A DNA stretch of 60,533 nt from positions 22,064,437 through 22,124,969 of the forward strand of contig NC_057719.1 in the NCBI RefSeq assembly GCF_004010195.1, given 5' to 3'. Position numbers and translations under genes: made by a program. Of the stretch, positions 175-60,533 are shown in pieces (position 1 is the first letter of the stretch; the number at the start of each line of letters is the position of its first letter). The notes under the pieces were generated by a model that saw only the letters and a list, made by a program, of their open reading frames with translations, searched no databases and was not told where the DNA came from. Source of the DNA: Chiloscyllium plagiosum (Eukaryota).

Positions 175-379
175 AGTATGGCAGAGTATGTTCTGCTTTT
201 ATAAGTACGTCAAATTGTGCATGAAAAGACTCGAATTAATCTCTGATCAGGATATTCATCAAAGGCACCAGACAACCAGATAAACCTTTAATCGCAGACC
301 TTGACTTCTCATTAAGGACCCATCTGGGGATTATTACCCAATATATGTCGAGAAGTTGATGATGCCAAATTTATTTCAT

Positions 380-988
380 GGCTGTGGCCTTCTCTATATT
401 GGGGAGACAGGCCGCCTACTTGCGGAGCGATTCAGGGAGCACCTCTGGGCCACCCGGACGAACCAACCCAACCAACCTGTGGCACAGCATTTCAACTCCC
501 CCTCCCACTCCACCGAGGATATGCAGGTCATTGGACTCATCCACCGCCAAACCACAACAACCCGACGGTCGGAGGAGGAGCGTCTTATCTTCCGACTGGG
601 AACCCTCCAACCGCAGGGGATGAACTTGGACTTCACCAGTTTCTTCATCCCCCCTCCCCCCACCTTGTCTCAGCCGGATCCTTCCAGCCCGGCACCGCCT
701 TCCTGACCTGCAGTCTTCTTCTTGACCTCTCCGCCTCCACCCTACTCCGACCTATCACCCTCACCTTGACCTCTTTCCACCTATCACATTTCCAACTCCC
801 CTCCTCCAAGTCCCTCCTCCCTACCTTTTATCTTCTCCTGCTGAACACTCTCTGCTCATTCCTGAAGAAGGGCCTGTGCCCGAAACGTCGAATCTCCTGT
901 TCCCTGGATGCTGCCTGACCTGCTGTGCTGTTCCAGCAATAAAGTTTCAACTTTGATCTCCAGCATCTGCAGACCTCACTTTCTCCTC
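380..988 (+). mobile_element. Penelope-like element (PLE), 5'-truncated: GIY-YIG endonuclease C-half plus 3' tail/pseudo-LTR (family A)
   Basis: ORF 356-706 reads CGLLYIGETGRLLAERFREHL...VAQHF...EERLIFRLGTLQPQGMN, with the YIG, R, E and GxN motifs of PLE GIY-YIG. It is followed by a C-rich tract, a hammerhead motif, AATAAA (938-943) and the tail GATCTCCAGCATCTGCAGACCTCACTTTCTCC that recurs across the window. Confidence 0.93.
858..893 (+). ncRNA. Minimal type-I hammerhead ribozyme in PLE 3' region, intact core
   Basis: Stem I ATTC(858-861)/GAAT(890-893), core CTGAAGA(862-868), stem II GGGC-ctgt-GCCC(870-881), GAAA(882-885), palindromic ACGT in place of stem III, and cleavage triplet GTC (predicted cut after C889). 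Confidence 0.85.
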
Positions 989-29097: not shown

Positions 29098-29468
29098 GAA
29101 TGAACCTTTGTCAAAGCGGCATTGAACCTGAGACCTGGATCTTTGATTTTAGATCAAATTATCCAGGTGCATTTATTTTTAAAAACAACTGAATTTTGTC
29201 CCTGACATATTCTGAAGTATTTTACCAATCTGAGACCTTGTTATATTGAAAAGCCCCTCTGTTTTTGAACCATAATTCTGCATTGAGCAGTTGTAATGCA
29301 CTTTGAAGTGGAATGGAACATGAGTTAGGAATAAGAATAGGCCACTTGATCCCTCAAGCCAAATAGGATTATGGATGATTAGTTTGTAATCTCAGCTCAG
29401 CAATCATGCTTAGTTCTGATAACCTTCACCCCATGGTAAAACCTTGATGATTGGTAAGTGTGTATTTT

Positions 29469-35616: not shown

Positions 35617-35730
35617 GTCCTTCTATTCCACTCATTCAGGGCACATCTTGTTAATAAAGTTTCAACTTTGATCTCCAGTATCTGCAGACCTCACGTCCTT
35701 CTATTCCACTCATTCAGGGCACATCTTGTT
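35617..35730 (+). mobile_element. 42-bp PLE 3' tip (35653-35694) flanked by a perfect 36-bp direct duplication
   Basis: GTCCTTCTATTCCACTCATTCAGGGCACATCTTGTT occurs at 35617-35652 and 35695-35730. The insert matches 938-979 with one mismatch. Confidence 0.92.
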
Positions 35731-40589: not shown

Positions 40590-41207
40590 ATCAGAGGGTG
40601 TGAGGGGGCCCCACACTGTCCCAGGACCCAGCAGTCAGAGGCTGTGAGGGGGCCCTGCAATGTCCCAGGATCCAGCAATCAGAGGCTGTGAGGGGGCTCT
40701 GCAATGTCCCAGGAGCCAGCAATCAGAGGCTGTGAGGGGGCCCTGCACTGTCCCAGGACCCAGCAATCAGAGGCTGTGAGGGGGCCCTGCAATGTCCCAG
40801 GACCCAGCAATCAGAGGCTGTGACGGGGCTCTGCAATGTCCCAGGATCCAGCAATCAGAGGCTGTGAGGGGGCCCTGCACTGTCCCAGGACCCAGCAATC
40901 AGAGGCTGTGAGGGGGCCCCGCACTGTCCCAGGACCCAGCAATCAGAGGCTGTGAGGGGGCCCTGCACTGTCCCAGGATCCAGCAATCAGAGGCTGTGAG
41001 GGGGCCCTGCACTGTCCCAGGACCCAGCAATCAGAGGCTGTGAGGGGGCCCCACACTGTCCCAGGACCCAGCATCAGAGGCTGTGAGGGGGCCCTGCACT
41101 GTCCCAGGAGCCAGCAATCAGAGGCTGTAAGGGGGCACTGCAATGTCCCAGGACCCAGCAATCAGAGGCTGTGAGGGGGCCCTGCACTGTCCCAGGACCC
41201 AGCAATC
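40590..41207. repeat. GC-rich minisatellite, 44-bp unit x14
   Basis: Unit ATCAGAGGCTGTGAGGGGGCCCTGCACTGTCCCAGGACCCAGCA. Starts at 40590, 40634 ... 41030, 41073 (1-bp loss), 41117 and 41161. Confidence 0.98.
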
Positions 41208-41704
41208 CCAGGGCTGCATGCAAGCCCTGCCCATGCTTGTTCCAGAACCCAGTTGCAGCACTGTTAACTAAAATTGCCGTTGTGTATGATATTAATTTCA
41301 TTACAATGTCTCCTATACTTCATGCCTAACATTGCCCTCAATTGTTTTTCACTCTAATGTACTGTATCATGTTATGACATTTAAGAATGTAATGTTGATG
41401 GTTATGAAATATTCAAAACAATATAGACTTCAAAGTTTTCATTTTAAGTTTTGAACAGCTGTCCTGGAACAGATATAATGTTTACTGTTAGAGAACATTG
41501 AGTTGTTATAAATGGTAACTATAACTAAAGTTGATCAGCGTGTAGTCTTTGAAATTCAGTGTTATTTGCTGAAAATAATTAAGAATGAGCGTGTTCAATT
41601 TGAAGATTTAAAAATAACAAGTTTCAATCGTCTAACCTTTCCTTCCTGAATGGATTGATCATCTTCACTCCTCCTCTCTCTTTTTTGACCTCTTTACATT
41701 TCCG

Positions 41705-44200: not shown

Positions 44201-45306
44201 GTTATTCACAAAATGCCCACATTATGTTAACAGTTCAGGTTGGTGGTCTTCCTGACTTTCAGTAGCCAAATGGTTCATTAAACAAATTTGTGACTATTCT
44301 TTCTGAACATTATATGGACAATTTAAAACAATTAATTTTGAAATAGGGTCACCTTACAGCTTATGAATATACAGACAAATACGGTGGTGATGACAACAAA
44401 AATTGAAATGCAGCATGTCAAAAACCTGTGCAATAATGTGCACTCAAATGCAATGTATAACACATAGTGAAAATGGATGTTGAGTTCAATGAGTGGCCTT
44501 TTTATGACTTTATTTTTGCAGATCCAGACATAGAAAATAAGCAAGATTGGCATGAGTTCAGAAAATATCCAAAGGAATCTTTCTGAGCAAGCAAGGTTAA
44601 GGTAACAAAGGAAGTTAAGTCAGTGAAGAGGAAGGGGAAGGGATATATGAGCACTCTGATAGAAAGGTCAGATAGGCAGGAGAAACTCTGGAATTGTGTG
44701 AGGCAAGAAGCCAGGAGAAAGGAGGGAAGTCTGTCGCTGTTTGAAGTCTGACTAACAAGACTATCTCAGGAGACTTAGAGTCAATGCTGGGTTAAATGAG
44801 GAAAACATGCATGAATTTATCAAGTATTCTGAAGTAATAGGTGATGCATTGTTTAATGCGCTGCCTCGCTAGATTATTGAATAAGATGATTTTTTTTCTC
44901 CATCTGGATATTGCATACAACTAAGAAAGTAAGCTGTTGCAGACTTTAGAAGTGATTATCAACAGATGAAGAAATGTGATCCTCAGTAAATTGTTAAGCT
45001 GAAACAGTGTCTTGAAGAAAGCTTTAATTCCAGCTGAGAGAATTGAAATATTACTTCGTTCAGAGCAAACCACACAATGAAGGAGAAACCCACTCCAGGG
45101 AAAGGATGATACCACAATACACGGTTAAGAACAAAATGCTACAGCTAATTGTTAAATTGATTCAGAAAGTTATTCAAAGCACACAGCACATAGGTGCATA
45201 GTCTAACTGAAGGATAGTCACAGGCGCATGTAAAAATAGTTACGAGAAACAAAAAGGCACCCTTCTGTATTCTCTCCTCAACAAAGCACATGTATTATTG
45301 TACAAA

Positions 45307-45506
45307 GTTAAAAATCATACAACACCAGGTTATAATCCAACAGGTTTAATTGGAAGCACACTAGCTTTTGGAGCACCCCCCCTCATCAGGTGGTTGAGGT
45401 GAAGGAGCTAGTGTGCTTCCAATTAAACCTGTTGGACTATAACCTGGTGTTGTGTGATTTTTAACGTGGTACACCCCAGTCCAACACCGGCATCTCCAAA
45501 TCATGA
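45307..45506 (+). mobile_element. Fold-back mini-PLE (family C) with 60-bp inverted arms and 15-bp TSD
   Basis: Arms 45307-45366 and 45406-45465 (58/60 complementary); TSD GTATTATTGTACAAA at 45292-45306 and 45507-45521; minus-strand hammerhead relic at 45359-45392. Confidence 0.85.
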
Positions 45507-46407
45507 GTATTATTGTACAAAATCAATAGAATGGTCCTCAAGCCAAATCCATGTCTGTTTGGTGTCGCACTGTTTGTAAAGTGCATATCCTTCTTGGACG
45601 GTATCTGCTACTTATGATGTAGCATAATTTTTTTAACTTAAACAACCTGTTCAGACCTCTGGAGCAGGTGGGACTTCAAACCAGTATTACTGCAGCCTTA
45701 AAGTAAATTGCAAGCCAAGAATAATTTTAATAAAGTAAAGAATACTCCCACACATCATGTATAAAGAAAGATTTGAAACATTATGATAATATTAAACATG
45801 GCTGAAGCTCGTTTCAGCTATATTGCGATGGCTGAATTGAAGCTGAGCACACATCACTTTAATTCAGATTTATTGCTTGCCTTGTTAAACTGGAAGTGAA
45901 CATGGGAATCATTTTTTACTGGAACTCCAGTCCTAATTACGTCAGTGCAGTTATGTCTTTCTATCTCAGTTCCTGGCCAAATTCTTCCATTCCCAAATCA
46001 TCCTATTCTCTAACTATCAAGTTCAAACTACAAAATACACTTTTAAAAAAATAAGAGACGGTGACAAGCATTGTACTTGTTTTTTTTTAAACTTCAGTTT
46101 GCATCAAGACATGTTTAATATAAAATTAAGAAGTATAGTTTTGTTAAAACAGACACCAATGCTGAACAGTAATTTATTAAGATCCTAAGTGATGTTCTGA
46201 TTATCACACCTCTTGCCTCAGAAATAGATAAGGGTATCAAGGAACAAATACTAATATCTTAACTGCATTATCCTATTTAATTACTTAATCTGTTGCTATT
46301 GTACTCTTTAATTCCCACTTCCAATTGCTCTGTATAGCCCTAGGTAGTGGGCTCCCATGACTTAAATTCAATCCCCAAAGTCAATTTCCACCTTCTGATT
46401 TCTGTGG

Positions 46408-46623
46408 AGAAAATGCTGGAAAATCTCTGCATGTCTGGCAGCATCTGTAAGGAGAGAAAAGAGCTGACGTTTCGAGTCTTTGACAAAGGGCTTTGACAAA
46501 GGGTCAGTTAGACGCGAAACATCAGTTCTTTTCTCTCCTTACAGATGCTGCCAGACCTGCTGAGATTTTCCAGCATTTTCTCTTTTGATTTCAGATTCCA
46601 GCATCTGCAGTAATTTGCTTTTA
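46408..46623 (+). mobile_element. Fold-back mini-PLE (family B) with ~72-bp inverted arms and 15-bp TSD
   Basis: Arms ~46408-46479 and ~46510-46581; perfect TSD TTCTGATTTCTGTGG at 46393-46407 and 46624-46638; tail TTCCAGCATCTGCAG. Confidence 0.9.
46490..46526 (+). ncRNA. Variant minimal hammerhead ribozyme with U3-A8 core (TTGACAA)
   Basis: GCT-TTGACAA-A-GGGTC-agtta-GACGC-GAAA-C-ATC-AGT. The inverted arm preserves the ancestral GACTC-GAAACGTC-AGC. Confidence 0.65.
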
Positions 46624-47059
46624 TTCTGATTTCTGTGGTTGCTTTGTTTTTGCAAAATTTAGTTGCAGCTACATTTTTGAGTTGACATACTAGCAGTTCT
46701 GCGTTATTAATGTATTCGGCTGTTTTCTACATCCTTTAGCAACCCAGCATTCCTCAATGCCAACAAGCATATGCATTACTTGACACTTTCAAAACTGACA
46801 GGCCAGCAATTCTGTTTCTTTCTCATATCAAGTACAGTTACAGGATAAACAAGCTGTTGATGTTTCTGCAAATTATATTTTTTGCCTGTCAGACTCTTCA
46901 ATGTTTCACTGTAGATAGACTAATTAACCCACAGAGCATGCAAAAGTTGTTATTTTTGCAAATGCATCTCACTTTTAGCAGAAAAGATAAAGAACATGGA
47001 ATTGAAATATTTAGGAATAAAAACTTCAAAGAAAAAGTTTTTGTGATAAAGAGAGGCTT

Positions 47060-47715
47060 GATACATAAGGACTGTCTTGACTGTAGCATAGGAGGTTAAG
47101 AGGTAGCCATATAGAGGTTTTTAACATCATGAGGGGCATGGTTAAGGTGAATGGCAGGTGTCTTTTACCTAGGGTGGGGAGTTCAAAAAGAGGGGCCATA
47201 TTTTTAAGGTGAGAGGTAAAAGATTTCAAAAAGGCACGAGAGGCATAGAGAGTGGTTCGCATGTAGAATGGACTTCCAGAGGAAGCATTTGATGCATGGA
47301 CAGTTACAATGTTTTAAAGACACTTAGATAAGTACATGAGTAGGAAAGGTCTGGAGAGATATGGGCCAAGTGCAGGCAGGTGAGATTAATTTAGTTTGGG
47401 ATTATGGTTGGCATGGGCTGGTTGGACTGAATGGTGTGTTTCCATGCTCTCCGATCTATCACCTTTACCCCCACTTCCATCCACCTATTGCACTCTTAGC
47501 TACCTTCTCCCCAGCCCCAGCCCCACCCCCACCCCCCTCCCATTTATCTCTCCACCCCCGAGGCTCCCAGCCTCATTCCTGACTAAGGGCTCCGGCCTGA
47601 AACATCAATTCTCTGCTCCTCGGATGCTGCCTGACTTGCTGTGCTTTTCCAGCAGCACACTCTCTACTCTGATCTCCAGCATCTGCAGACCTTACTTTCT
47701 CCTGTATGACTCTAT
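47060..47715 (+). mobile_element. CR1 3' fragment whose terminal motif is split by a PLE insertion
   Basis: RLRGSHIEVFNIMRGM region. The end GTGTTTCCATGCT (~47449) resumes as GTATGACTCTAT (~47704). Confidence 0.85.
47450..47702 (+). mobile_element. PLE 3' tail (family A) with mutated hammerhead (47575-47610)
   Basis: Collinear with 746-986; ATTC-CTGACTA-A-GGGC-tccg-GCCT-GAAA-CATC-AAT. Confidence 0.9.
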
Positions 47716-48240
47716 AGCAATGCTGCAGTGTATAAAACAATTTTAAGCTGTGATCCTCATTCATGCAAAAGGACCTTGTGAGAGTGCTTTCATCACAAGA
47801 TCAAGAAATAACCCCTTCTGATTGGTTTGGTTACAAAGAGAATGAAGCTTTACAGTTTTGGAACATTTCCTTCTTCAGTGCTCCAGTTCTGAAGATGGAC
47901 AACCACAATGACAATTGCTTTCGACATAGACTAAACATCTTCGTCACTGGAACGATGAATGCATTACTTGTCTTTGTTGAGACTCGTTTTCAGTTTTTGA
48001 CACATGACTACCATCTTCCTCCCAATGCCTCTCTTCCAATGTCTAATTCAGTCAGATTACCTTTTCATGGTTGAACATTAAACATATCAATCATATCTAG
48101 ATTGCTTGCAGAAATAATTTCTATTCCTCCTCCATGTCATTATAGCTGGAGTCAATAAAGAACAATCCTTTGGGCCCTTTGTTTTCCCTAACTCCATGCT
48201 GAAATTAAGTGATTTTTGTTTAAAACAATATTATACCCTG

Positions 48241-48315
48241 ATGCCAGCCATTTTAAAAATCTCTGTATTGTCATACATCAAAATGCCAGCCATTTTAAAA
48301 ATCTCTGTATTGTCA
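48241..48315. repeat. Perfect 33-bp direct duplication with a 9-bp spacer
   Basis: ATGCCAGCCATTTTAAAAATCTCTGTATTGTCA at 48241-48273 and 48283-48315. Confidence 0.95.
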
Positions 48316-49049
48316 AAAATCTTACATAGAGCATGTACTATTATGATCCCATTATTGCTGGAGAAATCAGATCCCAGATTGAAACCTGGCTTGATAGATC
48401 ATTTTGTTTTTTTTTTAAATTGTGGTTTTTAACAAGTTGCTCTTTTATTAAAATGCAAAAACACAATGTTGTTGATTTGTTTTTTTTTAAATAGAATAAA
48501 CCAAACTATTTACAGGCAACACAATTTTAAAGATTTTGAACGTGTGACAAAATTGTTTGTGAATTTTGTAGTGGAATTTGACAAAGAAGGGCAGAAAATA
48601 AATCTCCTCCCTGGGTCAGGCTGGTTGGAAGGGAAGTTATATAATGAGATGAGAAACTGTGGGATGAAGCCTCTCACATCCTGACTCCCCATAATGAAGG
48701 GCAGGGTGAAAAAATGTTTTTGTGGGGATTTATATCATCTTCAGGTGAGCTCTCTGCACACCCCTCAGTGTGTTTCCTTAAACTGTATTTGTAAGACATG
48801 TACATGATGTAGCACAAGGTATCTCTGGCCAGAGCTGCACTGGTTTGAACCTTCTAACAATCTCTATTATGATTTCTAGGTTTGCTGCCTCACCATATAC
48901 CTCAACTGTTTACTTATCCGAGCTCTGTACGAAGGGTGGAAGAAAGATTTTTTTGCCCGATAGCAGTTGAAGCCACTAAGTCACTACTTTTAGGGACAAC
49001 ATAACCTCTGGTTTGGAGGGCATTAGCTATGAGGAGAGATTGGTTTGAT

Positions 49050-49560
49050 TTCACTTGAATGTCAAAGGTTGAGGGGAGACCTGACAGAAGTTTAAAGATT
49101 ATGAGATGCATGGATGGAATAGCTAGTTAGAGCCTGTTCCCAGGGTAGAAACCTGTTTCCTTCCTTTATTCATTCACTGGATGAGGGTGTCACTGACGAG
49201 ACAAGCATCTATTACCCATCCTGAATTGCCCAGAGGGCAGTTAAGAGCCGACCACATTGCTCTTGGTCTGCTGATCTCTGTGACCTCTTCAACCTCTACA
49301 ACCCCTTCAGGATTGTTTTGCTCCAATTTGTGTACATCCTCCAAAACTCCATTTGTCACCCATTGGGAACCATGCCTTCATCCACCTAGGCCCCATGACC
49401 TAGATTCCCACCTTGAGCAAGTCTGTGTCTCCACCTCATACTCCTTCACTCCATAAACTTGGCAAGGTTTTGATTACTCTTCCTAATATCTCCTTTGTGT
49501 CTGATTATAGCTCTGGGAAGCACAACTCCAGTAATAAATATGCTTTCTATAAGTTGGTCA
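49050..49560. mobile_element. Mosaic of small relics: CR1 (+, ~49050-49150), SINE/LINE tail (-, ~49168-49270), L2-like 3' end (+, ~49275-49560)
   Basis: RLRGDLTEV.KIMR at ~49067; CTGAATTGCCCAGAGGGCAGTTAAGAG; CTACAACCC..CATGCCTTCA..CCTAGGCCC..TAATATCTCCTT. Confidence 0.55.
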
Positions 49561-49743
49561 TTGCTGTTGAAACAGTGATGGTCTAGGTATTATTTGACAG
49601 AGAAAAAAATCTTATAAGAGTGCCTGAAAAACAACAATAGGAAGAAGATTGATTTTGCTAGCTGAATATTTTTACACCTGTTAAATTTCCAGTCATCACC
49701 AGTTTAATAAATCTATCGAGCCTTAAAAAGCAGCACACCCTTT

Positions 49744-50354
49744 TTTTGTTTACTTTCTTTCTTCCCCCACAGTGCTTATTCTCCCGCCCCCCCGGCACCC
49801 AATTTGTGTGTGTGTTGGTGTCGGACACAGTGAGGAACAACAAGTGTGTAAATCGTTATTTATATTCCACCAGCAGGAAGAAGGGTGGCCCATGACAAGC
49901 AGTGCCCTTCTCAAGAGAGGGCAATGCTGCATGATCAAACAGTGAAGGGAGGGCAGGGATTAAATCAAAATGGAGTTGGAGGGGGAAATAAAATACTCCA
50001 TTTTCTACAGTGCCCACCTCTCCCTGAAAAGCTCGCAGGTGTTGGTGGACACCACGTGCTCCCTCTCCAGGAACACCTGGGCTCTGATATAACCACGGAA
50101 GAGGGCCAGGCAATCGGCCCTAATGATTCCCTCCACAGCCCGCTGCCTGGACCTGTTTATGGCCAGTTTGGACTGGTCCAGGAGCAGACTCCTCCAACCT
50201 ACCCACACCCGTCCGCACTGAGTGCCCAAAGCTCAGGATAGCAGGACTGAAGTACAAACAAAAACAGAGGAGAAGGCTTTTAAGAAAATCAAAAAGGGAG
50301 TGCAAACGCCCACACCCTATATATATGGTCCACAGATCATTGAACAAGCAGTTG
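49744..50354 (-). mobile_element. Tx1/L1-clade LINE 3' fragment (ORF2 C-terminus plus 3'UTR) with 12-bp TSD
   Basis: Minus frames give ..DHIY/IGCGRLHSLFDFLKSLLL..FG and LLL..SKLAINRSRQRAVEG..DCLALFRGYIRAQV.LEREH....FRERWA, resembling the Tx1-type ORF2 end. A-rich tail; TSD AGCACACCCTTT at 49732-49743 and 50355-50366. Confidence 0.8.
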
Positions 50355-50369
50355 AGCACACCCTTTATA

Positions 50370-50575
50370 TTTGGTTGATCTTGAATCTGCCATCAAAGCT
50401 ATCCAAAACAGATTAACTGGTCATTATCACAGTGCTGTTGTGAGATCCCACTGTTATTTGAAACCTGCCAGCAATATTTGTCCTCAAAACTACAGGGACT
50501 TGATTTCAAAAGTAACTCTTTGGATCCAAGTGCTTTGAGATGCTGTTAGAAGTGCAACATAAGTGCAAGTTTTTT
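50370..50575 (+). mobile_element. DeuSINE-like/L2-type SINE 3' half
   Basis: AAAACAGATTAACTGGTCATTATCACAGTGCTGTT..TTCAAAAGTAA..GTGCTTTGAGATG..AAGTGCAAGTTTTTT. Confidence 0.6.
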
Positions 50576-50768
50576 TTCCTCTTTCTCACCTGCTGCCTGA
50601 ATGCCTTTTGTGCACGAATAAGCTGTGCAAGGAACATTTCATTAATCTCACCTGCCTTAAATTTGACCTGTTCTCTGTAAGGGTGAAAGCATGACGACTT
50701 TTCCTGTACCTAAGAAATAAACACCTCAAGTTTTAAATTCTACCTTGCTGAGCAGAGAAACTGAATTA

Positions 50769-51064
50769 GATTAGATTACTTATAGTGTGGAAACAGGCCT
50801 TTCGACCCAACAAGTCCACACTGACCCACTGAAGCGCAACCCACCCAGACCCATTCTCCTACACTTACCACAATGGGCAATTTAGCATGGCCAATTAACT
50901 TAACCTGCACATTTTTGGATTGTGGGAGGAAACCGGAGCACCAGGAGGAAACCCACGCTGACATGGGGAGAACGTGCAAACTCCGCACAGTCAGTCGCTT
51001 GAGGCAGGAATTGAACCCGGGTCTCTGGCACTGTGAGGCAGCAGTGCTAACCACTGTGCCGCCC
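50769..51064 (-). mobile_element. HE1-type V-SINE, young, with TSD
   Basis: Reverse complement of a 9566-type copy; (TTAGA)n tail; TSD TGAATTA at 50762-50768 and 51065-51071. Confidence 0.95.
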
Positions 51065-51767
51065 TGAATTAATAACACCTATTTTATTTCACCACTTCAA
51101 ATTCAACTGGGGAGCATGCCAAGATCTATATTGGGGAAAACTCCAAATACATGAAAGCTTATCATGTTTGATTTATTCAAAAACTTTCAGTCATAAATAG
51201 AGGTTTTCATTGATTGGCTGTCTATTTTCAAAGATTAACAAGGTGTAAGAGATACTTGAACTACTGGTCTGATTCATGTATTTAAACAATTAAGAGAAGC
51301 CTCAGTGTTCTTTAGAATGTTGATTACTTTCCTCTGTACTGAATAAATACATAATTACCCAATCTAGCAAATGGCCAATTTAAATTGTGCTCATTCTCCA
51401 TTAATTGTCCTTGACTATAACACTTTAAATTACAATGCTTTTGTTTGTATCCTTGTCTTTAGTCGGTTGAAGGCTGGAAATATTTATACTTTGGCTATGG
51501 GGACTACTTCAACATATTAACGTGCTATTCTACTTTGAAGCCTGCTTATGAATCATATAGAATTTTTGCATACTTTAACCATACTTACAAAGTATTTTTT
51601 AAATTCTCTTGAGCTGAGAAATAACCACACCAAGAAAGGTAAACATAAACATGCCAAGATGTAATTGGGGGAAATAATTCCAATGATCAATTTTTTTGAT
51701 ACTCTAACATTAAATGTATGTTAATACAGTCCTGGGATTCAAAATTGCCTCCAATTGGTTTTTGTAG

Positions 51768-51985
51768 AGACAAAACAAACTGCAGATGCCGGAATCCAAA
51801 GCAGAAAAGCAGGAGCCTGAAGAACACAGCAAGCCAGGCAGCATCAGGAAATGGAGAAGTCAATGTTTCAGGCATAAACCTTCTTTAGGGCTTATACCCA
51901 AGGATTATACCCAAAACATTGACTTCTCCATCTCCCAATGCCTCCTGGCTTGCTATGTTCTTCCAACCTCCTGCTTGTCTACTTC
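51768..51985 (-). mobile_element. Fold-back mini-PLE (family D) with ~78-bp imperfect inverted arms
   Basis: Arms ~51801-51878 and ~51905-51983; minus-strand tail TTCCGGCATCTGCAG; hammerhead remnants AGGGCTTATACCCAA / CCCAAAACATTGAC at the turn. Confidence 0.75.
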
Positions 51986-52517
51986 CCATTGGTTTGTGGC
52001 AATGTTCAGGATAAGATTATTACATAGAGTGAGGAAGACACATGGAAATATTATGGAAAGTCGAGAAGCAATTGAAAATAATCATCAACTTTCAATTTGA
52101 CAACAATTTTAAGAATTATTCTGGTTCAGTGGAAGAATGAAGGGAAAATAGCCACACAATTAACCCATTTGAAATTGTATTTGGTAATTATGTAGTTAAT
52201 TATTTTTAACAAAAATGATAAAACAGAGACTATTTTGTTGCATAGCACATTGGTGCCATAGCTGACTGTTTCTCTTACATATGGCAGTGAGTAAAAATAT
52301 TCATTTTTCCAATCTTGATGTCAGGTATTTGAAATAGTAAAGAACAAATGATTGCTTGACCATAAATATTAAATGACAATCTCACAGCAGAGGGTGAAAC
52401 TTGAATTCAATGAATAAGTCTATTACTAAAACCTAGTATAATTGTGACCACAAAAATATTGCCCCAAAAAGCTTCTGTGGGGAAGAAAAATCTGCTATCC
52501 TCATCCAGTATCACCCA

Positions 52518-52632
52518 CAGGTCTGGCAGCATCTGTGGAGAGAAAGCAGGAGGATCACTGGACCCAGAACAGTAATTCTGTTTCATCTCCACAGATGTAG
52601 CCAGATTTGCTGATTCTCTCCAGCTATTTCAG
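52518..52632 (+). mobile_element. Small decayed fold-back PLE (family B)
   Basis: TCTGGCAGCATCTGTGGAGAGAAAGCAG pairs with CTGTTTCATCTCCACAGATGTAGCCAGA. The loop GGATCACTGGACCC is a stem II relic of the 16172-16209 hammerhead. Confidence 0.65.
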
Positions 52633-52644
52633 TTATTGAGGGAC

Positions 52645-52950
52645 AAATAGCTCTGCTGGACAAGTCCTCCTTCGTAACATCTGGGGGTTTGTGTCAAAAT
52701 TGGAAGAGTTGTCCCACAAGTTGGTTAAGCAACAGCCTGCCATTTTCATTCACACGTAAGTATATGTTACAATGTCTCAAACACCACCATGGCCATCCTT
52801 CAGAATGTCCTGTTTCACGCAATGGCATACAAGTTAGAGTTATCATTGGAGAGTGCAACATTGACTTCAGACCCTATGAGGTCTTATGGCATTAGGCCAA
52901 CCATGGCCAAAGAAACCACGAGCTGACTACTGTTTTATGGATATCTTGCG
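52645..52950 (+). mobile_element. Decayed APE endonuclease N-terminus of a CR1/L2-group LINE
   Basis: Across frames: NIWG..KLEELSHKLVKQQP.., NIDFRPYEVLWH. Confidence 0.6.
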
Positions 52951-53178
52951 TTTAAGACAATTCACCATTACGGACTCCATGTGCTATGAATAAATCATGC
53001 TGCAGTTCTCCCTGGCAGTTAGTCTGCTGTGTTTCTACCACCTACACATGCACATAAGTCTGGTGATATTGCTTTAATATCTGCTCATGACTTGGAATGT
53101 GTTTTAAATAAAGTTAATCAATCTCTGATGAGCAATTAGATCATTATAATGACCATGACATGGTGAGAAGCAATAGCA

Positions 53179-53469
53179 GGGCGGCACAGTGGATAGCACT
53201 GCTGCCTCACAGCACCAGGGTCCCAGGTTTGATCCCCAGCCTTGGGTGACTGTCTGTGTGGAGTTTGCATATTCTCCCGTGTCTGTGTGGGTTTCCTCCC
53301 ACAGTCCAAAGATGTGCAGGTCAGGTGAATTGGCCGTGCTAAATTGCCCATAGTGTTAGGTGCATTAGTCAGAGGGAAATGGGTCTGGGTGGGTTACTTT
53401 TCAGAGGGTCAGTGTGGACTTGTTGGCCTGAAGGGCCTGTTTCCACAATGTAGGGAATCTAATCTAATC
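53179..53469 (+). mobile_element. HE1-type V-SINE
   Basis: GGGCGGCACAGTGGATAGCACTGCTGCCTCACAGC, V-core, (AATCT)n tail. Confidence 0.93.
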
Positions 53470-53490
53470 AGAAAACATCATGCTGATGAG

Positions 53491-53626
53491 TGGTGCTGGA
53501 AAAGCACAGTAGGTCAGGCAGCATCTGAGATTTTCCTCCTTGGATGCTGCCTGACCTGCTGTGCTTTTCTAACACCACTTTAATCTAGACTCTGATCTCC
53601 AGCATCTGCAGTCCTCACTTTTGCCT
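53491..53626 (+). mobile_element. Fold-back mini-PLE (family A) with degenerate 14-bp TSD
   Basis: GTGGTGCTGGAAAAGCACAGTAGGTCAGGCAGCATC inverts to GATGCTGCCTGACCTGCTGTGCTTTTCTAACACCAC. Flanks are ATCATGCTGATGAG (53477-53490) and ATTATACTGATGAG (53627-53640). Confidence 0.85.
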
Positions 53627-53759
53627 ATTATACTGATGAGGCCTATTGCACTTGAACAGTCAGCAAGCACGTTAATCTGCAGGTGAAACACATTGGCATG
53701 ATCTAATCTATTGACAAAGTGAAGAAGACAATAAAAATTAAATTCATGCTAAAGTGGTG

Positions 53760-53872
53760 GGGTTCTTGTGGAACGGGGGCAATGTCCCTATCTCTGAGCC
53801 AGGAGGCCTGGGTTTAGGTTCCACCTGCTACAGACGTGTGTCATTAGCAGATCTGATCAAGTTGATTAAAAT
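53760..53872 (+). mobile_element. Short tRNA-like SINE
   Basis: TGTCCCTATCTCTGAGCCAGGAGGCCTGGGTTTAGGTTCCACCTGCT..GTGTGTCAT..TCTGATCAAGTTGATTAAAAT. Matches the reverse complement of 6815-6925. Confidence 0.65.
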
Positions 53873-53891
53873 CAAATGATGATAAAATGCA

Positions 53892-55050
53892 TGAGACAAC
53901 CCTTAGCATCATTATTGTTGTACCAAAGGAGTGAGTGCCAGACCAATAACTAAGGGTAGGTCAAAGACACATTGTCAGAACATTTGCAGAATTCCTTAAG
54001 TTAAGTTGGGTTTCAACAGGCCTGTTAACAGAATTTCAAAAGTTTAAGCAATGTTTGGAGCAACAGTTCCTAGTTTTTGATGTGTTCCATGCAGGAAAAT
54101 AAGTCAAAGATTTGCTCCTGCTTTATAATTTTCTGTATTTGCACAGACCGTATCTTTACCCATTTTTCTATCATTTGAATCAGGGACTGAAATCAAAAAG
54201 GCAATGTTTTAAAAATCAAGGATTATGGAAAACATTTCTACACCTTTTTAAAAAGCAAGTTAATGGGGGACATTACGACAGTAGAGCTGGAATCAGGGTG
54301 TATGGAGATTAAAACTGGCAACAAGTAGAGAATTGGTCTGTGCACTGGTTAACTATTGTCAATGACAAAGACCTTCTGCTTGCCAACAAATATGTGCTTG
54401 GCTCCCAGGTTGTCAAATTGCTTGGGGTGTTAAAGCTTGGGTCAGAAGCAATTGGACCTCCAGAAAGAAAGGAGCTGTCCTTTCTCTGCAGTTAAAACAA
54501 ACACCTCAAGCATGAAAAAAGCCGATTCATTTCCTTCAACGTTGCTGTAAGCTGTGTCTTTTAAGCAATAAGACAGAAATTTTATAAGTGTGCATCAGTC
54601 GCCCTGTGGCTCCTTCAAGCAAGTGAAAATACCTGGAGAAGGAAGATCAAGGAGCAGTATGTCCTAATGAGCCAAAAGGATAATCCCAATGAATCCTGTG
54701 GACAGAGACCATTGAACTGCCTTGCCTGCCTTTCTCTGTACCCATAGCAATGATCATTTTCTAAGGTGTCTGTGTAGATGTGTCAGGGCAAGTTTTTTAA
54801 AAAGAAGTTGGAGTTTTAACTAGTAGAGTTACATGTTGATTATTCATAAGTTTTTAAATCTGTAAATAGAATTGTTACCAATAGTAATTCTTGTTAAGTT
54901 CAGAAACCTGGTCTGTGTTTTCTGTTACCCTTGACAAAAAAAAGTTAATTTGAAGAATGTTGCATAGTTTGATAAAATAAGTAGTTTTTGTGATGACTCC
55001 AGAAATAGTGAGACTTATTTTCCAGCATGCTAACCTAGTGAGGTATTAAC
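53892..55050 (+). mobile_element. Possible old solo LTR (~1.15 kb)
   Basis: TGAGACAACCC start and GAGGTATTAACA end give an LTR-like look only. No TSD found. Confidence 0.3.
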
Positions 55051-55240
55051 ACTTGAGATTAAAGGTCTACATAAAGTGAACAGGTCATATTTATCAGCTT
55101 GAGAGTTAAAATAACATCAAAAGGATTGACCTTAATAAAGAATCAGCTAAAGGTTGATCCATTCCTTAAGTAGTACTGCAGGGCTCATCCGCTTTGTCTG
55201 ATTTTCTTTTCTTTTCCTTTCTTTTCTTTTTCTTCTCTTT

Positions 55241-55551
55241 TTAGATTAGAGTGGATTACATTACAGTGTGGAAACAGGCCCTTCGGCCCAACAAGTCCAC
55301 ACCGACCCGCCGAAGCAAAACCCACCCGTACATTTACCCCTTACCTAACACTACGGGCAATTTAGTATGGCCAATTCACCTGGCCCAGTACATCTTTGGA
55401 CTGTGGGAGGAAACCGGAGCACCCGGAGGAAACCCATGCAGACACGGGGAGAACGTGCAAACTCCACACAGTCAGTCGCCTGAGGCGGGAATTGAACCCG
55501 GGTCTCTGGCGCTGTGAGGCAGCAGTGCTAACCACTGTGCCACCGTGCCGC
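55241..55551 (-). mobile_element. HE1-type V-SINE, young, adjacent to a (TTTTC)n tract at 55202-55241
   Basis: The head and core are nearly identical to the reverse complement of 9566-9770. Confidence 0.95.
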
Positions 55552-55589
55552 GTTTTCTCATCTATTTTATCTCACTTATCGCTTGGTGA

Positions 55590-56246
55590 TTGAGCTCAAT
55601 TGCGGTGATAGCATTGGTGACCTAGGAACACAAACTCAAGTAGGCCCAGCAGCTCGGACTCTTGGCAACAGTGCCAGAAGCAAATTTGCGTTCCCGGCAG
55701 CTTCTGTATCAACGAGGTGGTCCTAGTGCCAACTCATGGTTGCAGCTTCAAAAGCAAGCTTGGGTTCCCATCGGGCATCTGCTTCCAGCGCAGATTCATG
55801 GAGGCGGCGATGGAGGTGATTTTGGGTCTAGTACGAGACCAGGTGGCAGTAGCAAGGTGGGCCTGAAACTGACTCATGGTGGTGGCAGGGTTGGGTTTGG
55901 ATGGGTTCTGTACCCAGCAGCATCACTAGCGACTGTATTGGAGAGGTCCAGCAAGAACTCATAGTGAACGAGGGCATCGATGGAGGCAAGATAGCGCGGA
56001 AGGGTGGTGATTTTCATTTCAGCAGTGGTGGTGCAGCAAAGGAGTTTCTAATCTGGCCACCAGGCCCTTGGCCCATGATGGAGCACTTAACAAGAAAGAC
56101 TGCAAAGTTGGACACATCCTTTATTTCTTCATTTTTCTAAATGTTTTGGTTTATTTTTCTTTGTTTTAAGATTGTGCCAGAGAATGGCAACACAATACGA
56201 CAGTTTACACTGTATTTTGTAACAAGATATGTGACAATAAATAAAT
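55590..56246 (+). mobile_element. Unclassified GC-rich retroposon ending in GTGACAATAAATAAAT
   Basis: GC-rich body, T-rich segment and terminal TTTACACTGTA..ATGTGACAATAAA. Same architecture as 24203-24915. Confidence 0.55.
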
Positions 56247-56589
56247 TATATTAATCTTACCAAATCCAATCTGAGTTTTTCTGTGTTAGGAACATATAAA
56301 ACTCACTAATTTGGCGTGACTTAGCACTTGAGTGCAACTTACAATAAAACCAGAGGCAAGGATAAAAGATGTTCTGGTAGTCTTTGCTCACTTATTAACT
56401 TTTATACCATTTGATTCTAACCTACTACAAGAAAGAAACCTGCTTAATTGGTGTGTATCCAGATTAAGGTTTGAGATATTCGGACTATTTCAAAATTATG
56501 AAGCAGCTTGAGGTAATGTTAATAAAATACGTAAAAGCGGAACTAAATTCAAAGTTGAGTGCAATATTTAAGTAGTTCCTAAAAGCACA

Positions 56590-58285
56590 CTAAGGATGAC
56601 AGGACAGGATAGATGATGTGTACAGTTGCAGCATGTGGGAGCTCCTGAATACTAGTTTGGTGCAAGGTAAACACACCAGCAACAAATGTGTGAGGTTCGA
56701 GCAGCTTCGACACAGAATTTATGAGCTGGAGCCTGAACTACAGACACTGTGTTGCAGCAGGGAGGGAGAAAAATACCCAGATTCCTTGTCCTCGGATGCA
56801 GTCATAGGTCTTATGATTGGCTTGCTTGATTTAGTCACTACTGAGAGGCAAGCAAGTCTGACAACAAGTGAAGCAGGCAAAGGGACCAAGAGGAGAAAAT
56901 GAGGACTGCAGATGCTGGAGATCAGAGTCGAAGAGTGTGGCACTGAAAAGGCACAGCAGGTCAGGCAGCATCCGAGGAGCAGGAGAATCAATGTTTCAGG
57001 GAAGAACCCTTTGATAGGAATCAGGCAAGGGGACCAAGAGGACAAGAGCACAGAAGCCTCAGTGTTTGGATTGTACAGCAGGTCTGAGATTCTTTCGGCT
57101 TGTCTGAATAAAAGTGAGAACTGCACAGTGGATGAGCTAATAGTGCATGGCATGATGTCATAGGAATCCACTCAAGGTGGCGGTCTGAGTTGGACCGTAG
57201 TGTAAGTAGGAGATGGTAGACTGGAGGGCATTGACATTGTCCTCTGCAGCAAAGTGCTTGAGTCCAAGCAGTTGTGGTGACCCTACACCCCCTCCAATCC
57301 TGGATGCAGAATTCAGGACATCTGCTGAGGGCTGGAAAGGAACTTGTAGTGGAGCGCAGGGAGGGTCCAGTTGTTGCAGTCTATGTACATACTATATAGA
57401 CAAAACAAGGAAGGAGTTTCAGCATAAACAGTCTTAGAGCCTAGTTGCCAAATTAAGAAGCATAACTTCAAAGGTCATAAGTTCTGTATTATTACCTGAT
57501 CCAGAGGGAAATTAGCAGAGTACAAAACAGACAGAGATAAAGAAACAGCTCAATACTGGGAGAAGTAGATTTCATAGTCCAGTGGCACTAATACAGGGGA
57601 AAATGAGATTTATACTGTTGGGATGGTCTCCACCTGAACTATGCAACAATTGTTGTTTTTGCCAACTGCATAACTTGAGAAGTAGAGATGATTTTAAACT
57701 GAATAATGGAGGTAAGGGATCAAATTTGAAAAGATGGGGTTAATTAAAGAGAATAGTTGAGGTCTCAGAGAAAAATATTAATATAGGAAATGGTAAAACA
57801 GACCATGACAGGAAGCGATAGAGGGAATGAATGTAAAAGTCAGCCAACAAAAAGAATAAAACAAAGTATCTGTATCTGATTGCTCATAACATTCAAAATA
57901 AATGCACTGAGAATACAAATAGAAATTCCTTAGTATAGATTGTTAGCTATTACAAAGGTTGAGCTGCAGAACGACATGGAGTTACACTTCAGTCTTGGTG
58001 GGGGGGGGGGCGGTGTTTGTTTCAGGGCATTTAGGAATGACAGGAAAGTAGGAAAAGGTGGAGGGGGGTGCCTTTTATATTTATTAATACATAGTATTTG
58101 AACAATAGAAAGAGATGATCTAAGTTCAGGAAACCAAAATGTGGAGACAGTTTGGGTGAAAATGAGAAATGGTAAAGGCAAGAAGTCACTATGAGAATAG
58201 TGTACAGGTCCACTAACAGTAATCACATAGTACGGCTAAACAGAAAGGAAAATTTAATGAGAACTTGACAGAAAGACATGATGAT
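56590..58285 (+). mobile_element. Decayed 5' portion of a CR1 LINE: ORF1 (zinc-finger/coiled-coil plus esterase-like) and start of ORF2 endonuclease
   Basis: SCSMWE..NKCVRFEQLRHRIYELEPELQTL; VGD..RALT..; later LLAITK, GGGV.., DDLSSGNQNVETVWVKMRNGKGKK..VYR. Confidence 0.75.
56895..57021 (-). mobile_element. PLE 3' tail (family A) inserted in CR1 ORF1 with 21-bp TSD
   Basis: TSD CAGGCAA(A/G)GGGACCAAGAGGA at 56874-56894 and 57022-57042. It begins at a decayed hammerhead, ATTCCTATCAAAGGGTTCTTCCCTGAAACATTGAT. Confidence 0.9.
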
Positions 58286-58299
58286 AATTATGGCAGATG

Positions 58300-59815
58300 T
58301 TGTTTTTTTGACTTGTGAGAAGTAGACATTGCTGGCCGGCCTGCATTTATTGCCTGTCTCTAGTTGCTCAGAGAAGGTGGTGGTTAACTGCGTTTTTCAA
58401 CCAGCACCAAGTCCATGTACTGTAGGTAGACCCACAATGACCTATTTCCAAATCAGCATGGTGGGTGGCTTGGAGGGGAAATTGCAAGTGGTAGTGATGT
58501 TTTCATGTACCTGCTGCCCTTGTCTTTCCAGATGGAAGTGGTCATGGGCTCAGAAATTGTTGTCAAAGGATCTTTGGTGATTTTCTGCAGAGCATCTGGT
58601 AGATAGTACACACTGCTGTGAACTTTCCTGAATGGTGTAAAATATCATAAGTGCTGTTAATGCTGCACCTATCCAGGTTTATCCAGGTCGAGAGTGTGGT
58701 GCTGGAAAAGCAGAGCAGGTCAGGCAGCATCCAAGGAGCAGGAGAATCAACATTTCGGGCATAAGCCTTTCATCAGGAAGGGCAGTCCTCACTTTCTAAT
58801 AATTCCGTCACACTCTTAACTTGTGCCATGTGTACCTGATAAAGGGCTTATGCCCGAAACGTCGACTTTCCTGCTCTTTGGATGCTGCCTGTCCTGCTCT
58901 GCTTTTCCAGCCCAATGCTTTTTGACCTTGGATATATTGGACAGGCTTTGGGGAGTTAGGAGGTGAGGTACTCACTGCAGTATTCCAAGCTTTGGCCTGC
59001 TCTTTTAGTGACTATTTATTTTGTGAATCCAGATGAGTTTCTGTTCAATTTGTGATCCCCGTGGATGTCGTCAATGGAGGATTCAGTGATGGTAACATCA
59101 TTGAATATCAAAAGGTGGTAGTCACATTATCTCTTATTGGAGACAGAATTGCCTGGCATTTGTGTGGCACGAACGTTACTTGCCACTCGTCAGTCCAAGC
59201 GTGGATGTTTTGAACATGGACTGCTTCAGTGTGTGAGGAGTGCGAATGGTTCTGAAAATTGTATAGTCATCGGTGAATGTCCCCAATTCTGACTTTATGA
59301 TAGAGGGAAGGTCATTGATTAAACAGCTGAAATGGTGGGGTTCAGACACTACCCTGAGAAACTCCTACAGAAATATCCTGGAGCTGAGATGACTGACTTC
59401 CAACAACCACAACCATTTTCCTATATGTCATTTTGAGTTTGTCCCCTGATACCTATTGATTCCAATTCTACTAAAACTCCCTGATGCCAGACTTAATTGA
59501 ATGTAGCCTTGATATCCAGGGCTGTCACTCTTACCTCACCTCTGGAATTCAACTCTTTTGCCCATGTTTGAACCAAGGCTGCAATGAAGTCAGGAACTGA
59601 ATGACCCTGGCAGAATATAAGTTGGGCGTCACTGAGCAGGTTATTGCAGAGCAGGTGCTGCTTGATAATACTATTGATGACTCCTTCCAACATTTTACTG
59701 ATAATCAAGACTAGAGTGGATGGGATGATAATTGGCAAGTTGGATTTGTTCTGCTTTTTATGTACAGGGCACATGTGGACAATATTCCACATAGTTGGGT
59801 AGATGCCACTGTACT
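58300..59815 (-). mobile_element. Second CR1/L2-group family LINE, RT to 3' end, interrupted by PLE DNA
   Basis: VCPVHKKQNKSN..IISKMLEGVINSIIKQHL..LLSDAQ..FCQGHS..ELNSRGEVRVTALDIKATF; 3' end GGCAATAAATGCAGGCCGGCCAGC. Confidence 0.88.
58680..58934. mobile_element. Composite inverted PLE (family A) structure with two divergent hammerhead motifs
   Basis: Minus arm ~58680-58779 (CTGATGA..GCCC-GAAA at 58746-58779) and plus arm ~58834-58934 (CTGATAA-A-GGGC-ttat-GCCC-GAAACGTC at 58836-58863), with host LINE sequence between them. Confidence 0.85.
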
Positions 59816-59819
59816 GGGA

Positions 59820-60071
59820 GACAGTGAGATCTGCAGATGCTGGAAAAACACAGCAGGTCAGGCAGCATCCGAGGAGCAGGATTGAGAGGTGGAACAGGTC
59901 ACGAGAGTGGTGCTGAGCTGGAAGGTTGGAACTGGGGTAAGGTAGGGGGAGGGGAAATGAGGAAACAGGTGAAGGTCACATTGATGCCCTGGGTTGAAGG
60001 GTACTGAGGTGGAAGGTGTTCTTCCTCCAAGCCTCGAGTGTGAGCGAGTGGCAATGGAGGAGGCCCAGGAC
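59820..60071 (-). mobile_element. Inverted 3' portion of a PLE (GIY-YIG end plus tail, internally deleted)
   Basis: Minus frames VLGLLHCHS.., LEEEHL.., QPQGINV.F resemble the end of ORF 356-706; tail GATGCTGCCTGACCTGCTGTG..CCAGCATCTGCAGATCTCAC. Confidence 0.85.
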
Positions 60072-60533
60072 TTCCGCCCACCTCCAACACACTGCATCCA
60101 CCTGGACACCCTGCGCTGGCCTATTACATGCCCTCGACCTCTTCATTTCCAACTGCCGCCGGGACATTAACCGCCTCAACCCGTCTACCTCCCTCCCCCA
60201 CTCCAACCTCTCACCCTCACAACGCGCAGCCCACCAATCCCTCTGCTCCAATCCCAACCTCACCATCAAGCCAACGGATAAAGGGGGCGCAGTGGTAGTC
60301 TGGCGCACTGACCTCTACACCGCTGAAGCCAAACGTCAACTCGAGGACACCTCTTCCTACTGCCCCCTCGACCATGACCCCACCCCCCCATCACCAAACC
60401 ATCATCTCCCAGACCATACAGAACCTCATCACCTCAGGAGATCTCCCACCCACAGCTTCCAACCTCATAGTCCGGGAACCCCGCACTGCCCAGTTCTACC
60501 TCCTTCCCAAGATCCACAAGCCCGACCACCCTG
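60072..60533 (+). mobile_element. PLE ORF, pre-RT/RT N-terminal region (continues beyond the window), one frameshift
   Basis: SNLSPSQRAA..NPNLTIKPTDKGGAVVVW (PLE DKG motif at 60277), then a +1 shift in the C-run near 60385, then FYLLPKIHKPDHP (60494-60532). Confidence 0.92.

Follow-up and report, generated by a model that had tools for sequence, protein, structure and literature searches.

Miniature head-to-head insertions of Penelope-like element 3' ends at a locus of Chiloscyllium plagiosum

Complex insertions of EN+ Penelope-like elements (PLEs) are composed of a direct and a head-to-head inverted copy, with a 30-40 bp tail on one arm, a TSD, a 5' truncation, a GIY-YIG-linked 3' end and a minimal hammerhead in the terminal repeat (PMC3846280; PMC8557442). 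Pen2a_Av, for instance, has an inverted pLTR, a 31-bp tail and a 9-bp TSD (PMC3846280). In PAc (Poseidon of Anolis carolinensis), both target strands are cut and extended in vitro, and the tail is defined by two internal sites of RT initiation, located 111-118 nt into the ORF; the hammerhead lies ~85-100 nt upstream of these sites (PMC11167929). The accessible part of that work describes neither reconstituted cDNA joining nor an inverted product, and it presents the later steps of PLE integration as still unvalidated. Dispersed metazoan PLE hammerheads display a minimal type I motif and are mostly single truncated copies; opposite-strand pairs 100-700 bp apart and, in Schistosoma mansoni, a U3-A8 core variant are already documented in the accessible text of PMC4209133, in which junction positions are not mapped. 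Finally, animal non-LTR retrozymes (bioRxiv 10.64898/2026.07.22.740005) are non-coding, pLTR-derived type I hammerhead units, found as dispersed monomers, dependent on PLEs; their definition requires head-to-tail tandems in which the motifs are complete.

The window considered here, i.e., the whole stretch of 60,533 nucleotides that was analysed, harbors six hairpins (E1 to E6) within 13.6 kb (Table 1). They are truncated head-to-head end pieces of the kind known from PLEs, the "inverted pLTR plus one-sided tail" in miniature; the architecture is already published and the elements themselves are ordinary. They share the above features of the EN+ complex insertions, from which they differ by their short arms (16-145 nt) devoid of any ORF, by their density and by TSDs of 14-15 bp as compared to 8-10 bp in rotifer PLEs. 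The hairpins resemble retrozymes as dispersed, non-coding units of pLTR origin with type I hammerheads and PLE dependence, and family A, one of the sequence families described below, has head-to-tail joints of a 131-nt unit; the six hairpins themselves, however, are head-to-head and their motifs are mostly decayed. The U3-A8 variant is found here in a vertebrate family. The literature searched, to which most subscription papers and the Repbase/Dfam notes were external, contains no description of miniature PLE fold-backs in cartilaginous fishes, nor of a 5' boundary at the hammerhead.

Table 1. Features of the window; offsets (+/-) count from the first base of the hammerhead core
Feature	Position	Strand	Description
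P1, reference family-A copy	305..987	+	end of GIY-YIG ORF and 3' UTR; minimal hammerhead intact, with core at 862-868, GAAA at 882-885 and scissile bond 3' of 889; tail stops at 987
E1 hairpin	45307-45506		
E1 left TSD	45292..45306		exact 15 bp; right copy 45507-45521
E1 short inverted arm	45307..45395	-	family C; entire hammerhead motif, core 45389-45383
E1 long direct arm	45400..45506	+	begins within core; 33-41 nt extension beyond short arm
E2 hairpin	46408-46623		
E2 left TSD	46393..46407		exact 15 bp; right copy 46624-46638
E2 short inverted arm	46408..46479	-	family B; 5' end ~+17, within the 3' strand of stem II
E2 long direct arm	46478..46623	+	42-nt extension; core 46493-46499 reads as U3-A8 variant
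E3 hairpin	51768-51985		
E3 left TSD	51750..51764		15 bp, 2 mismatches; right copy 51984-51998
E3 long arm	51768..51889	-	family A'; full tail; 5' end ~-2; core decayed
E3 short arm	51888..51985	+	begins at stem II (+7 to +12); 3' end ~31 nt short
E4 hairpin	52518-52632		
E4 short inverted arm	52518..52549	-	family B; 5' end ~+32, 3' of scissile bond
E4 longer direct arm	52550..52632	+	begins at stem II (~+6); lacks tail end and TSD
E5 hairpin	53491-53626		
E5 left TSD	53477..53490		14 bp, 2 mismatches; right copy 53627-53640
E5 short inverted arm	53491..53529	-	family A; 5' end ~+41
E5 long direct arm	53529..53626	+	5' end +28 to +31, at or just past predicted scissile bond; 47-nt extension
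Solo family-A unit (control)	56889..57023	-	no inverted arm; 21-bp TSD, 1 mismatch; start ~5 nt upstream of core
E6	58680-58934		
E6a inverted arm	58687..58781	-	family A; 5' end ~-3; 3' end ~35 nt short of tail end
E6a direct piece	58782..58797	+	last 16 nt of tail only (+107 to +122)
Host LINE ORF2 between PLE pieces	58798..58834	-	37 nt; in frame with LINE reading frame on both sides of E6
E6b second PLE piece	58835..58934	+	motif and short tail, from -1
Long head-to-head PLE insertion	59817..60533	.	inverted tail, inverted 3' piece (P1 710-589), direct PLE-type ORF leaving window

The whole window contains 12 inverted pairs of at least 20 nt lying at most 600 bp apart; E1 to E6 are the six longest, and the others do not exceed 24 nt. 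The original prediction of six hairpins at this locus, belonging to four families and derived from PLE 3' ends in a known inverted arrangement, was borne out. Their arms are 82-94% identical (matching bases: 64/68 in E1, 67/73 in E2, 54/64 in E3, 23/28 in E4, 34/37 in E5 and 69/77 in E6), and their folds reach z-scores of -16.1, -14.9, -14.4, -6.1, -10.6 and -18.7, respectively. E1 to E5 are single head-to-head insertions, each an inverted and a direct copy of a PLE tail as had been proposed for all six; E6, in which a head-to-head arrangement also exists (E6a), proved to be two PLE pieces separated by 37 bp of a host LINE. In E1, E2, E3, and E5, one arm holds the full tail and the other is 31-47 nt shorter, leaving an unpaired, one-sided extension, with the TSD outside. 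These TSDs, exact in E1 and E2 and with two mismatches in E3 and E5, bring to four the number of clear cases, of which three had been announced; none was found at the flanks of E4 and E6. Exact matches among 400 random pairs are no longer than 12, and with two mismatches allowed the 99th percentile is 13.

Other classes of hairpin were rejected. A MITE is at odds with the unpaired extension at one end and with arms that are retroelement 3' ends, not DNA-transposon TIRs. All nine Rfam matches to microRNA precursors score far under the gathering thresholds and were taken as generic hairpin matches. A retrozyme-type tandem was discarded as all six are head-to-head and none has an exact canonical core.

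The four sequence families are A (E5 and E6), A' (E3), B (E2 and E4), and C (E1). The tails of E5 and E6 match P1 at 80-94% and that of E3 at 72%, and family B is linked by a tail similarity of 72-76%. E1 matches only itself within the window, and its architecture and motif point to a PLE origin. The ORF link is direct for family A only: the P1 ORF, contiguous with a family-A tail, scores 0.95 with the GIY-YIG clusters of the Atlas. Pfam returned no family for either PLE ORF piece, and the Atlas assigns the right-hand ORF to DUF8422, a label that does not name RT; the PLE ORFs of the window are fragments only. Searches of metagenome contigs gave no match to a 28-base tail motif, and 151 pattern matches but no confirmed relatives for the PLE-type ORF.

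The P1 tail ends 125 nt past the core start. P1, at 862, is also the sole genuine match to the exact canonical core, which no hairpin arm passes; a second exact match, at 53483, was dismissed as a chance join of the E5 TSD and inverted arm. Rfam detects no hammerhead. Allowing one mismatch, 17 hammerhead matches are observed versus 5.8 +/- 1.8 in 30 shuffles, and the core-stem II-GAAA spacing is preserved in families A, B, and C despite differing stem II pairs. Hammerhead sequence had been reported at the turn or spacer of five hairpins; it was found there in four of the six (E1 to E4). The entire motif of the E1 short arm is mutated in stem II and in the GAAA box, and the long arm lacks ~13 nt of these two elements. 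The E2 junction displays a 13-nt tandem duplication, and that of E3 an 8-nt duplication at the start of the short arm.

E6 is a composite site. Its 53-nt spacer consists of 16 nt of PLE tail and 37 nt of host LINE, and the hammerhead is carried by the two arms and is absent from the spacer; the E6a inverted arm carries the entire motif with a mutated stem II. The LINE reading frame inside the spacer rules out a single fold-back. The last 9 bases of E6b resemble the inverted host junction of E6a. E6 is devoid of a TSD, and the best explanation given below covers it incompletely.

Where the arms end was assessed on a small set of 21 5' ends (13 hairpin arms and eight other copies), the arm ends being assigned by hand. 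As anticipated for breakpoints plotted against the CUGANGA core, these ends are not uniformly distributed: 12 of the 21 lie at most 8 nt from the first core base, or nine when ambiguous arms are called less favourably; with the latter calls, the clustering does not depart significantly from a truncation model with a short mean (p 0.33 for a mean of 60 nt, 0.08 for 80 nt). The cluster falls at the 5' edge of the hammerhead, with the scissile bond ~30 nt downstream. A ribozyme link special to fold-backs found no support, since the boundary zone contains eight of the 13 hairpin arms and four of the eight non-hairpin copies (Fisher p 0.67). The ribozyme marks the position of the turn, and its cutting is unnecessary for most arms.

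The hairpins are probably one-step, dead-on-arrival insertion products of endonuclease-bearing PLEs, formed by priming on both strands and head-to-head joining of the cDNAs. The GIY-YIG endonuclease would cut the two target strands ~15 bp apart, a spacing suggested by the TSDs, and each target 3' end would prime reverse transcription of the element RNA. Judging from the arm asymmetry, one priming would occur at the tail end and the other 31-47 nt inside; the shortfall of one arm would then result from two start sites. Both cDNAs would end after ~40-130 nt, mostly near a fixed boundary that precedes the hammerhead core by ~5 nt; this boundary may lie close to a fixed RNA 5' end where they would run off. 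They would be joined via short microhomology, small duplications or a deletion, the hairpin being created anew at each insertion. The same 5' boundary recurs in solo copies and tandem joints as well as in hairpin arms. L1 twin priming also involves second-strand priming, which yields an inverted segment joined by microhomology, the two parts usually originating from different RNA stretches. Here, in contrast, both parts begin near the RNA 3' end, so that they overlap and form a hairpin.

The strongest competitor is snap-back, or template switching, driven by structure at the ribozyme: a single cDNA folds on short inverted matches in the hammerhead stems and serves as its own template, or else an antisense RNA primes its own copying. 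For rotifer PLEs, both self-priming and palindromes located at the inverted junctions have been proposed (PMC3846280). The long arms of E2 to E5 extend further 5' than the short arms, as this route demands, so four of the six junctions fit it as well. At the junctions of E1, E2, and E3, bases of the core or of stem II are deleted or duplicated, and a family-B core 18-mer (29099-29116) directly adjoins a family-A copy at its 5' end, with 0.10 expected by chance. As a general cause, however, snap-back is contradicted by E1 and E6a, whose short arms reach further 5' and hold sequence missing from the long arms, and which therefore need two independent primings; in E1, this asymmetry could also stem from bases lost later from the long arm. 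In addition, half of the copies that form no hairpin stop in the boundary zone too, most ends lie past stem II along the direction of synthesis, indicating that the stem did not stop the enzyme, and two start sites directly explain the shortfall. Snap-back is an unlikely origin.

It is very unlikely that ribozyme cleavage sets the template, i.e., that reverse transcription acts on the 3' product, whose first base is at +28, and that this end becomes the turn. Four ends do lie at +28 to +41 (both arms of E5, the E4 short arm, and the 59.8-kb copy at ~+32) and could derive from cleaved RNA. Nine of the 13 arms, however, carry sequence 5' of the bond, their templates hence being uncut, and a single end out of 21 is within 2 nt of it. 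No pile-up of RNA molecule ends is listed on the reference copy, a weak test given the 3'-tag library. In the anole PLE, hammerhead mutants insert normally, cleavage is dispensable in vitro and no RNA-seq ends were found at the cleavage site (PMC11167929). A cleaved-template route is at most minor.

Independent neighbouring insertions in opposite orientation, or a later rearrangement, apply at least partly to E6 with its host LINE spacer, but as a general account they are highly improbable, a single TSD pair surrounding each of E1, E2, E3, and E5, and arms sharing variants absent from other copies. A non-autonomous hairpin element, transcribed and re-mobilised as a stereotyped, self-propagating unit, would agree with the similar, TSD-bounded sizes, with six occurrences in 13.6 kb and with the ability of PLE pLTRs to mobilise sequence in trans (PMC3846280), but is scarcely credible as all six junctions differ, including both within-family pairs (E2/E4 and E5/E6a), as the E1 short arm ends in microhomology with its own TSD (the last 7-8 bases of the left TSD also match the element at the priming site), and as no head-to-head joint recurs among the 15 of 70 joints listed, where the sole compatible strand change, 860/946, occurs in one contig.

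These joints come from ~158,600 public contigs and 3,494 reads, aligned to positions 401-1000 of the reference copy rather than to the hairpins themselves. No RNA record was listed for 45000-54500, a result given no weight here. Tandem joints from 988 to 857/858, in contigs of two of the three organisms, mark the same 5' boundary. RNA reads display 206 loose ends at 858, and their depth increases 3.5-fold between bins 841-860 and 861-880, the largest of 29 bin-to-bin rises, which could partly be due to subfamilies with a 3' UTR less than 80% similar to P1. A strand-change joint, 938/988, is recurrent (13 contigs, three organisms) and reads as tail-to-tail, not head-to-head. Loose ends at 877, 938, and 950 were discarded as breakpoints, P1 departing there from commoner subfamilies. 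The RNA reads also exhibit an A>G excess, a weak lead toward RNA editing, and dsRNA production by the hairpins is plausible.

The hairpins constitute a fossil record of PLE integration. Their arm ends, junction microhomologies, and -5 boundary offer a means of telling two-strand priming apart from self-priming and of examining whether cleavage by the ribozyme ever contributes to the template. A more speculative and rather doubtful reading is that a ~130-nt RNA, from the hammerhead edge to the tail (a solo pLTR or retrozyme monomer), acts as a PLE-dependent non-autonomous retroposon in these fishes, with priming from the two target strands converting a large share of its insertions into short hairpins with new junctions, which would seed the genome with very many ADAR-edited dsRNA sites. 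If so, these sites would be comparable to inverted Alu pairs, but each from a single event, and genome-wide counts of arm ends would reveal the second-strand and joining steps of PLE transposition. Penelope elements are a main source of edited dsRNA in Xenopus tropicalis (PMC10636886); PLE stubs may likewise be one in this lineage, provided that the A>G excess reflects editing.

The six hairpins of Penelope-like element (PLE) 3' ends proposed in the original prediction (E1-E6) are all present, and they are the six longest of the 12 inverted pairs in the window (vertebrate DNA, 40% G+C, 1,272 N, abundant LINE and SINE pieces). They were measured against P1, a PLE 3' end whose ORF scores 0.95 with GIY-YIG clusters and leads into a 3' UTR, and whose minimal hammerhead is intact. 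On the scale used here, 0 is the first core base, +125 is the tail end (987 in P1), and the scissile bond separates +27 from +28. The arms are 82-94% identical, with fold z-scores of -6 to -19, and all six hairpins are head-to-head with outward 3' ends. In E1, E2, E3, and E5, one arm reaches the tail end and the other stops 31-47 nt before it; the tail end of E4 is lost. Exact 15-bp target-site duplications (TSDs) frame E1 and E2, and TSDs with 2 mismatches frame E3 (15 bp) and E5 (14 bp), compared with random pairs giving exact matches of 12 bp at most and a 99th percentile of 13 bp with 2 mismatches. No TSD emerged when the flanks of E4 and E6 were compared. The proposed sorting into four families also holds in sequence comparison. 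All six hairpins lie within 13.6 kb (45307-58934) and none in the first 45 kb, which holds five non-hairpin copies. A ~300-bp SINE, presumably of the tRNA-derived type, has four copies in the window that are 76-90% alike.

Features in the window, with 5' ends of PLE copies on the core-based scale (arm 5' ends are hand calls from alignments)
Feature	Position	Strand	5' end(s)	Remark
P1	305-987	+		family A, ruler
P1 hammerhead	core 862-868; GAAA 882-885; predicted cut after 889	+		intact
E1	45307-45506		-4 and +4	family C
E2	46408-46623		+17 and -2	family B
E3	51768-51985		-2 and +7	family A'
E4	52518-52632		+32 and +6	family B
E5	53491-53626		+41 and +28	family A
E6	58680-58934		E6a -3 and +107; E6b -1	family A
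Eight other copies			+5, -5, -7, -5, +77, +32, -126, beyond -500	
Control solo unit	56889-57023		near -5	TSD-bounded, no inverted arm
SINE copies	9570-9869, 50765-51066, 53176-53475, 55241-55549			~300 bp
Tandem array	40590-41252			period ~88 bp

E6 had been taken for a single fold-back, a reading rejected here because host LINE sequence splits its PLE pieces. Translated on the minus strand, both flanks of E6 and a central stretch of 37 nt yield successive portions of a LINE ORF2 motif; E6 therefore consists of E6a (an inverted arm and the last 16 nt of a tail), host DNA, and E6b (a second short arm). Among proteins of at least 440 residues, out of 150 collected, P0068 matches 59058-58927 with residues 647-691 and 58675-58619 with residues 705-723, and its intervening residues resemble the translated spacer. 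The 19-residue match has by itself an E-value of 0.65, the case resting on order and motif. The E6a and E6b arms have one variant and a 9-base end in common, and so may derive from one complex event.

The original prediction made the ribozyme region a recurrent point of template switching or snap-back. When breakpoints were plotted relative to the core, 12 of 21 5' ends fell within 8 nt of 0 (scan statistic omitting P1; p 0.02 for a mean of 60 nt and 0.001 for 80 nt, under uniform or geometric truncation), or 9 of 21 when five ambiguous arms were called less favourably (p 0.33 and 0.08). Clustering near the core is thus probable and, on window data alone, not proven. It is not specific to hairpins, since 8/13 of their arms versus 4/8 of the other copies end there (p 0.67). 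Nine of the 13 arms run 5' past the scissile bond and were therefore copied from uncut templates; the E5 long arm alone starts at the bond. The ribozyme marks the region where short copies start, and is apparently not the cause of the fold-back.

Purified PLE protein from the anole is reported to cut and extend both target strands, and insertion remains normal with a dead ribozyme (PMC11167929). Priming from both nicks would produce two inward-pointing cDNAs between TSD copies, with the outer end of one cut short, which is the layout of the hairpins; two primings explain all six. Snap-back of a single cDNA requires that the short arm not extend further 5' than the long one, a condition that E2-E5 allow. 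However, the short arm of E1 contains the stem II and GAAA region absent from its long arm, and the long piece of E6a is just 16 nt. Small duplications (E2, E3) and a deletion (E1) look like end-joining scars, and at the start of the E1 short arm 7-8 bases of the TSD end also match the element; some junction microhomologies may come from hammerhead stems. The cDNA stop near -5 may be run-off at the RNA 5' end; a structural block fits poorly, because the enzyme is by then already past stem II. In the anole element, two internal start sites bound the tail, 111-118 nt into an ORF that begins inside the hammerhead (PMC11167929), and the Drosophila virilis transcript starts inside the pseudo-LTR (PMC2377424). 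An intron boundary at the helix I 5' end of the latter element (PMC4209133) is a further possible source of a fixed boundary.

Contigs of three organisms (54,045, 36,088, and 68,455 records) and 3,494 RNA reads (~2% of one run) were aligned to 401-1000 at 80% likeness. Mean RNA depth is 70 across 401-800 versus 1,525 across 861-980; since both strands are covered, it is attributed mainly to dispersed copies being read through. The largest rise, 3.5-fold, lies at 860, a step to which subfamilies with different 3' UTRs would contribute. Contigs of two of the three organisms contain head-to-tail joints from 988 to 857/858, loose ends at 858 are seen in 206 RNA reads, and at 877 the consensus of loose ends continues the motif back to ~857 before fading. 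Depth step, tandem joints, and loose ends point to a recurrent ~131-nt unit beginning at the stem I 5' strand. Among the 15 joints listed of 70, far fewer than the junctions that exist and hence weak evidence, no head-to-head joint recurs, one at 860/946 fitting that type in a single contig; no pile-up of molecule ends is listed for contigs or RNA reads on 401-1000. A strand-change joint, 938/988, recurs across the three organisms (13 contigs) and reads as the rarer tail-to-tail arrangement. At 985, 179 RNA reads continue beyond the tail into a single consistent flanking sequence (agreement 0.86) with a polyadenylation-like signal, which probably marks a single expressed locus that has a PLE tail close to its 3' end.

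As for double-stranded RNA, A>G makes up 57/351 variant places of family A (401-1000) in RNA versus 11/160, 15/270, and 20/294 in the DNA contigs (Fisher p 0.003, 0.00003, and 0.0002), raw reads from many loci being set against collapsed contigs from other individuals. No RNA versus DNA-contig difference is seen at these places for T>C, C>T, and G>A. The excess is consistent with possible A-to-I editing of sense transcripts; in Xenopus tropicalis, Penelope elements are reported among the most edited repeats (PMC10636886). Between the E1 arms (45376-45389, minus; 45400-45408, plus), two A-to-G changes and one C-to-G change (RNA sense) in core and stem II create a G run, for which slippage and an edited template are both possible.

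The E2 core (46493-46499) reads UUGACAA, the U3-A8 covariant known from Schistosoma PLEs (PMC4209133). An 18-mer of this family-B core region recurs with 2 mismatches at 29099-29116 (minus; 0.10 expected), directly next to a family-A copy whose 5' end is at 29098, which suggests a family-level variant and a possible family switch at the hammerhead. At 35617-35730, solely the last 42 nt of a family-A tail (35653-35694) lie between the two copies of a perfect 36-bp duplication, a tail extension inserted alone. A long head-to-head insertion inside a LINE (59817-60533) comprises an internally deleted inverted tail, a jump past the hammerhead to another inverted 3' segment (P1 710-589), and a direct ORF.

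In the literature searched, no description of a miniature PLE fold-back form in cartilaginous fishes was found. PMC3846280 presents a similar layout (inverted pLTR, one-sided 31-bp tail, TSD), with junction palindromes and a self-priming hypothesis, and PMC8557442 and PMC8969392 call the inverted pLTR with one-sided tail typical. Minimal hammerhead pairs on opposite strands, 100-700 bp apart, are also described (PMC4209133). Retrozymes are presented as pLTR derivatives, one cartilaginous fish included (bioRxiv 10.64898/2026.07.22.740005); E1-E6 lack the tandem arrangement used there as a criterion. The hairpins are genuine and represent a further example of an already known insertion pattern, most likely remade at each insertion.
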